64,000 bases of DNA from Shigella phage phi25-307, in sequence record MG589383; one strand, 5' to 3'. The notes below the pieces were generated by a model. The model was not told where the DNA came from, did no database searches, and saw only the letters and a program-made list of their open reading frames with translations. The position numbers were made by a program, and so were the translations under genes. Shown here in pieces: positions 56,434 through 56,889 of this stretch. Position 1 is the stretch's first letter. Each line of letters starts with the position of its first letter.

Positions 56434-56889
56434 TTATTTTAGATCTTCGGCCCAATCTAGTTTTAAGGGTTCTTTGTATTCACGGTCGAGAATAACCGGA
56501 ATAGCTACATCACCACTGAATGATAGTTGGCCAACGTTATATGATAACGTTATATGTGGAGTGTAGTCGTCGAAATCATGAGTAGCACCTAAAGCTCGTG
56601 CATACTGATGACGACATCTAAGATATTCGGAATCAAGAACTAAAACCAGTACAGCGCCGTCGTCAGTTTTCCATACCTCAAAGTGTCCTGATTCGGCAAT
56701 AGAATAACTACCACTAGATGTAGTATATGGTATGTTTACACGTGAATAACAAATTGTTGAATGAAGCTTTTCACGTGGTACTGGATTAGGAATTCTTAAT
56801 TTGCGCTGGAGGTCTTCCAGCGCATCAAGTGTTAATTCCGAAAATTTAGCTGCGACGTAGAGGCCTTGTGAAAAGTCCTCAAATTTCAT
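56434..56889 (-). CDS. 57B: 2H phosphoesterase, Acb1 (gene 57B)-like anti-CBASS candidate
   Basis: two H-x-[ST]-x motifs (HSTI, HITL); 151 aa; immediately upstream of 57A. Confidence 0.6.

Follow-up and report, generated by a model that had tools for sequence, protein, structure and literature searches.

What does the open reading frame behind gene 57A of Shigella phage phi25-307 encode, and does it belong to a small anti-defense cluster with promoters of its own? We examined this in a 64,000-nucleotide stretch of the phage sequence (record MG589383), hereafter the window, in which the frame occupies positions 56434..56889 on the minus strand. The original prediction was that it encodes an Acb1 (57B)-like 2H phosphoesterase, likely an anti-CBASS cyclic-nucleotide nuclease, and that an IPI-like gene follows it. 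The explanation that best fits all of our data, and that we hold with high confidence, is a functional T4-type Acb1 ortholog in a Mosigvirus coliphage.

The frame runs from ATG to stop and encodes 151 amino acids. ORFs on the antisense strand over it are no longer than 30 amino acids, and an Rfam scan of positions 52000-60000 matched two tRNAs and no RNA element over the gene on either strand. The product matched the Pfam Acb1 family (PF23474; E=1.8e-58) along all 144 positions of the profile, scoring 196.8 bits where the cutoff is 27. BLASTP against T4 57B (NP_049750) gave 85% identity and 92% similarity in a gapless full-length alignment. A PDB sequence search aligned residues 9-148 with Acb1 structures 7T26 and 7T27 (E=7.9e-59). 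These are the apo and 3′3′-cGAMP-bound forms of Acb1 from Erwinia phage FBB1, which shares 63% identity with the window protein across 141 aligned positions, a level from which we infer that the window protein adopts the 2H fold of the solved 7T26 structure. Neither Acb1 nor Ip7, the product of the downstream gene described below, is covered by an NCBIfam model. On these alignments, the frame is a real gene orthologous to that of T4 gp57B/Acb1, as predicted, and we refer to it as acb1.

We then compared the residues on which Acb1 activity depends, using the BLASTP alignment of NP_049750 for the T4 sequence. The key residues described are a catalytic tetrad (H44/T46/H113/T115), four stacking residues (Y12/W74/F107/W147), and a glutamate that reads the adenine N6 (E141) (PMC9117128). 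The window protein has two H-x-T-x motifs, H43-S-T45-I and H112-I-T114-L, which align with the T4 tetrad H44, T46, H113, and T115 and are the paired H-x-T/S-x motifs that had been predicted. A pair of motifs this short can be a chance occurrence, which is not so for the full-length PF23474 match or the match to 7T26. The stacking aromatics are present as Y11, W73, F106, and W146, and the adenine-reading glutamate is present as E140. All nine published T4 residues are thus identical in the window protein, with its numbering equal to that of T4 minus 1; the protein is one residue shorter than T4 Acb1 at the N terminus. The C-terminal lid (approximately residues 144-151) reads LDWAEDLK compared to LDWADDLK in T4 (145-152), with D149E as the single conservative change. 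FBB1 Acb1 likewise has a 2H fold with a C-terminal lid, and its catalytic residues are identical to those of the window protein. It differs in carrying Phe and Tyr where T4 and the window protein have W74 and F107 (T4 numbering), which keeps the aromatic character, and in a one-residue insertion after the W74 strand.

Compared to T4, 23 of the 151 residues are substituted. None of the changes falls at a known contact, and 11 lie within positions 54-81 (T4 numbering), around the base-stacking Trp. Given this concentration, the quantitative substrate preferences of the window allele could differ from those of T4 Acb1. A second comparison was possible with 2H PDE-9, deposited as “Anti-CBASS protein Acb1” (PDB 9Q2G; bioRxiv 10.1101/2025.08.21.671373), which falls in the same 2H structural group and degrades 3′3′-cGAMP. 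Its sequence similarity to the window protein is marginal (E 0.008). Unlike the window protein, 2H PDE-9 has an N-terminal lid, and it avoids 2′3′-c-di-AMP and so does not trigger Panoptes (bioRxiv 10.1101/2025.08.21.671373). With the same tetrad, four aromatics, and adenine-reading Glu as T4 Acb1, the window protein belongs to the T4 type and not to the 2H PDE-9 type.

A tblastn search with the window protein found homologs in 1468 phage records, of which 117 had matches of at least 99% identity, several of these exact; Tequatrovirus homologs of the T4 group were approximately 85% identical. The 2.2-kb region around acb1 was 94-98% identical to that of many T4-type coliphages (EP02SG, ATK47, SHSML-52-1, Shf125875, Mizar, and the LF82 series). 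Because its close match ATK47 is classified as Straboviridae, Tevenvirinae, Mosigvirus, we assign the window to an RB69-like Mosigvirus. The acb1 gene is of an already known kind, with a well-studied T4 counterpart and an allele already present in public databases. The homolog in phage Mizar is annotated as “anti-CBASS Acb1-like protein.” A majority of deposited genomes, among them the RefSeq T4 record, label the family “RNA ligase” or “hypothetical protein.” These labels are annotation lag and mark no biological difference. The assignment made here is of slight importance as a discovery, and its practical value lies in correcting annotation.

The “RNA ligase” label does, however, describe a different function, RNA ligation or repair of the LigT/2′-5′ RNA ligase type, in which the protein would act on broken tRNA or RNA ends and not on immune signals. 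The family phrog_755 bears this label, as do many deposited genomes, the RefSeq T4 record among them. The acb1 product also has a weak match to PF13563 (2_5_RNA_ligase2; E=0.012), and the gene lies near a tRNA cluster. However, the PF13563 match is partial and scores 16.1 bits, below the 27-bit cutoff, compared to 196.8 bits for the Acb1 model, and the label is a fold-level transfer that predates the characterization of 57B. The T4 ortholog was identified as cGAMP degrading, and the crystallized Acb1 pocket is closed and of a size suited to cyclic di- and trinucleotides (PMC9117128). The residues of this cyclic-oligonucleotide pocket are all conserved in the window protein. With PF13563 under threshold and every Acb1 pocket residue in place, we rejected the “RNA ligase” annotation and consider an RNA end-joining role highly improbable.

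The biology of Acb1 has been worked out in other phages. T4 57B was found as a cGAMP-degrading activity by activity-guided fractionation (Hobbs et al. 2022, Nature 605:522, PMC9117128). The reaction is metal independent and proceeds in two steps, cutting 3′ of adenosine via a cyclic-phosphate intermediate (PMC9117128). Cleavage of adenosine-containing cyclic di- and trinucleotides was shown for T4 Acb1 and nine other homologs (PMC9117128). In its crystal structure, FBB1 Acb1 adopts a 2H fold, its pocket is U-shaped, and residues 145-152 form a C-terminal lid (PMC9117128); the lid is required for catalysis. On CBASS hosts, and specifically there, T4 Δacb1 is impaired (PMC9117128). Transposon insertions in T4 57B are depleted solely on a CBASS-expressing host, and acb1 is nonessential on K-12.

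Because the window protein is orthologous to T4 57B, we assign it the same mechanism and role with high confidence. The homology, residue conservation, synteny, and gene packing were all established on the window protein and its locus, while the chemistry, substrate range, anti-CBASS phenotype, and expression timing are carried over from experiments with T4 and FBB1. By homology, the substrates would be adenosine-containing, 3′-5′-linked cyclic di- and trinucleotides (3′3′-cGAMP, cUA, cAAA, and cAAG) and also 2′3′-c-di-AMP. In the proposed mechanism, this small, metal-independent enzyme would trap its substrate in the U-shaped pocket, with the C-terminal lid closing over it. The four aromatics would stack the bases while the glutamate reads the adenine N6, and the two His/Thr pairs would catalyze attack of the 2′-OH on the 3′-5′ bond beside the adenosine. 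The ring would be linearized through the cyclic-phosphate intermediate. With the signal removed, CBASS effectors would stay inactive, and the host would not commit suicide before phage replication is complete. The predicted role as an anti-CBASS cyclic-nucleotide nuclease is thus supported by orthology to T4 Acb1 and by conservation of 9 of 9 catalytic and contact residues.

The protein could be an Acb1 whose main benefit in natural hosts comes from something other than CBASS, such as interference with other cyclic-oligoadenylate pathways (e.g., cA3-signaling type III CRISPR), or one that is a net liability through being sensed by Panoptes, a type of guard system that works with decoy signals. 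Of the viral 2H phosphodiesterases tested, T4 Acb1 ranks with the most promiscuous; it degrades 2′3′-c-di-AMP and cA3 as well, and this breadth turns it into a Panoptes trigger. Panoptes types I and II are activated by Acb1 expression, phages escape them by inactivating acb1, and phage Bas43 carries a natural acb1 nonsense allele. Against this, the T4 Δacb1 defect is confined to CBASS hosts, as is the depletion of 57B insertions, and deletion of acb1 from T4 had no effect during infection in the presence of one Panoptes system. Such a reading would shift the ecological emphasis and leave the molecular function the same; we consider it very unlikely. We also entertained, as conjecture, that Mosigvirus Acb1 has a substrate profile shifted from that of T4, for example, with less activity on 2′3′-c-di-AMP or cA3. 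If true, the phage would keep its anti-CBASS activity while escaping Panoptes-type guards, a combination reported for the distantly related 2H PDE-9. We regard such a shift as very unlikely.

Natural loss-of-function alleles in relatives, together with the dispensability of acb1 on K-12, raise the question of whether the window copy is itself decaying or catalytically dead and kept only by its operon position. Unlike the Bas43 nonsense allele, however, the window frame is intact and full length, and the nine functional residues are conserved. The presence of identical proteins in many phages isolated independently of one another speaks for purifying selection and against a dead copy, a possibility to which we give almost no credence. 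Because the allele is intact, we predict an active enzyme that brings a CBASS benefit as well as a Panoptes liability. The phage would be expected to resist cGAMP- and cAAA-signaling CBASS, and it may be sensed by Panoptes-type guards, which is relevant to the choice of therapeutic phages.

Gene order provided a further line of comparison. All genes of the region are on the minus strand. Gene 3 (57912-58502) is followed by gene 1, encoding the dNMP kinase (57124-57858; 244 amino acids; PF21448, E=6e-96), and gene 57A, encoding the tail-fiber assembly chaperone (56889..57119; 76 amino acids; PF17594 GP57, E=5.9e-23). Beyond acb1 lie the internal-protein locus and a trna.4 homolog (55797..55982), which encodes a small hydrophobic protein of 61 amino acids (phrog_1692). 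The order 3-1-57A-acb1-internal-protein locus-trna.4 is common to the window, T4 (NC_000866), and phage Mizar. As in T4, acb1 has 57A upstream and an internal-protein locus downstream, which bears out the predicted gene 57B position. After trna.4 come trna.3-like and trna.2-like ORFs, one more ORF (54608-55123), and two tRNAs. These tRNA genes (54372-54528, minus strand) are just Arg-tct and Met-cat, whereas T4 has eight tRNAs plus segB; in phage Mizar, a NUMOD3/DUF559 homing-endonuclease-like gene lies among the tRNAs.

Genes 1, 57A, and acb1 are tightly packed. The end of gene 1 and the start of 57A are separated by 4 nucleotides, and the 57A stop and acb1 ATG overlap as TAATG, which suggests translational coupling of 57A and acb1. 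Given the overlap and the 4-nucleotide gap, no dedicated promoter could fit in front of acb1, and the nearest intergenic spacer upstream is that between genes 3 and 1. This spacer holds a putative middle-mode promoter (57886..57910, minus strand) made up of a degenerate MotA box, CGCTTCTA (57910-57903), an 11-nucleotide spacing, and TATAAT (57891-57886). At the equivalent position upstream of gene 1, T4 has a perfect MotA box in the arrangement AATGCTTCA-N11-TATAAT. Since CGCTTCTA is degenerate compared to the T4 box, the middle-promoter assignment is tentative. A late-promoter motif, TATAAATA (57474..57481, minus strand), lies within gene 1, approximately 360 nucleotides upstream of 57A, and is matched by a motif at the corresponding site in T4. 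We treat it as a candidate late promoter for 57A-acb1. The three genes would then form one unit, with gene 1 first and acb1 last, probably transcribed from the middle-mode promoter before gene 1 and from the late promoter within it. In T4, expression of 57B/acb1 is predominantly middle/late in one published data set and later than that of acb2 in another. The middle/late timing agrees with this picture of putative promoters.

The predicted cluster was to have early promoters of its own. A generic sigma-70 scan of the region found 17 promoter-like sites, compared to 19.5 ± 4.3 in shuffled sequence, which is no excess. The early-type promoter calls made here rest on the top-scoring sigma-70 site, the T4-specific GTTTAC pattern, and associated hairpins. 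The top sigma-70-like site in 5 kb was TTTACA-N17-TATAGT with a TG extension (56419-56391), located between the acb1 stop and the next start. It forms part of a promoter-early/stem-loop (PeSL)-type cassette (56381..56420, minus strand) in which GTTTACA-N17-TATAGT (56420-56391) overlaps a hairpin with a 12-bp stem (56410-56381; −17.7 kcal/mol; z −4.9). A second PeSL-type cassette (56002..56040, minus strand) precedes the trna.4 homolog and combines GTTTACT-N17-TACTAT (56040-56011) with a 12-bp hairpin (−16.4 kcal/mol; z −4.6). Together, the first and second cassettes form a direct repeat. In T4-group phages, PeSLs consist of a TTTACW-N17-TAYWAT promoter overlapping a stable stem-loop and occur at indel boundaries in hyperplastic regions (PMC4122927). 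TTTACT-N17-TACTAT fits this consensus exactly, and TTTACA-N17-TATAGT fits it with one mismatch.

Judging by their positions, these promoters would drive ip7 and trna.4 and not acb1. Early-type sites therefore do exist at the locus, as had been proposed, but they lie 3′ of acb1, and we rejected an acb1-specific early promoter. The hairpin of the first cassette may terminate the acb1 transcript, a role suggested by the literature on such elements. The PeSL hairpins were not among the hits of a generic terminator scan; their stems are AT rich, and they lack a clean T-run.

The gene that follows acb1 (56052..56360, minus strand) encodes 102 amino acids beginning with the capsid-targeting sequence MKTFKEFICE and matches phrog_2667, “internal head protein” (E=6e-40). 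Its product is 89% identical to that of the Mizar gene at the position annotated in ATK47 as “internal head protein 7 (Ip7).” It has the features by which T-even internal proteins are recognized, namely the MKT(Y/F)(K/Q)EF..(I/L)xE start and membership in a known IP family. The expectation of an IPI-like gene was thus correct as to an internal head protein with a capsid-targeting sequence, but the protein is Ip7, not IpI. In a pairwise BLASTP against T4 IpI, residues 1-32 aligned (E 0.002), with identity confined to the targeting signal, and the IpI ortholog of Mizar likewise aligned with the ip7 product through the N-terminal capsid-targeting sequence alone. When the whole 64-kb window was searched with Mizar IpI by tblastn, capsid-targeting signals were the only matches, and no ipI ortholog was found. 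We therefore rejected an IpI identity for 56052-56360; the similarity is the targeting signal of approximately 10 residues, and the body of IpI has no detectable match.

T4 IpI/IPI* inhibits the type IV restriction system GmrS/GmrD, and ip7 sits in the same hyperplastic locus, with ip7 here in place of ipI as the neighbor downstream of acb1. Because its N-terminal targeting sequence (MKTFKEF...) is like that of T4 IpI, the product is very probably packaged and injected. The similarity between the two proteins ends after approximately the first 10 to 30 residues, and the anti-GmrSD function of IpI is therefore not transferable to Ip7. The GmrSD variants blocked by T4 Ip1, Ip2, and Ip3 differ from one protein to the next (PMC12373910), and it is a reasonable guess that Ip7 is another injected anti-restriction protein. 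A PDB sequence search with Ip7 returned chance-level DARPin matches only, and Ip7 showed similarity to neither a solved structure nor a Pfam family.

The close relatives Mizar and ATK47 carry both internal-protein genes, in the order acb1-ipI-ip7. Comparing window positions 56361-56433 with positions 3061-3488 of the Mizar sequence, we found that a 355-bp ipI cassette is absent from the window. The junction of this indel falls inside the AGTTTACAT −35 box, which is common to both flanking PeSLs. The absence of ipI looks like the product of recombination between PeSL repeats, an indel of the type described for these elements. EP02SG and vB_EQ1 also appear to have the ipI-less arrangement, each as a single-piece match. 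Elsewhere in the window, at 43633-45339 on the minus strand, there is a second capsid-targeted cluster of four consecutive ORFs that start with MKTY(K/Q)EFI. Its members are an IpIII-like protein of 192 amino acids (phrog_5341), an IpII-like protein of 100 amino acids (phrog_7857), and two paralogs of 104 and 109 amino acids (phrog_3966).
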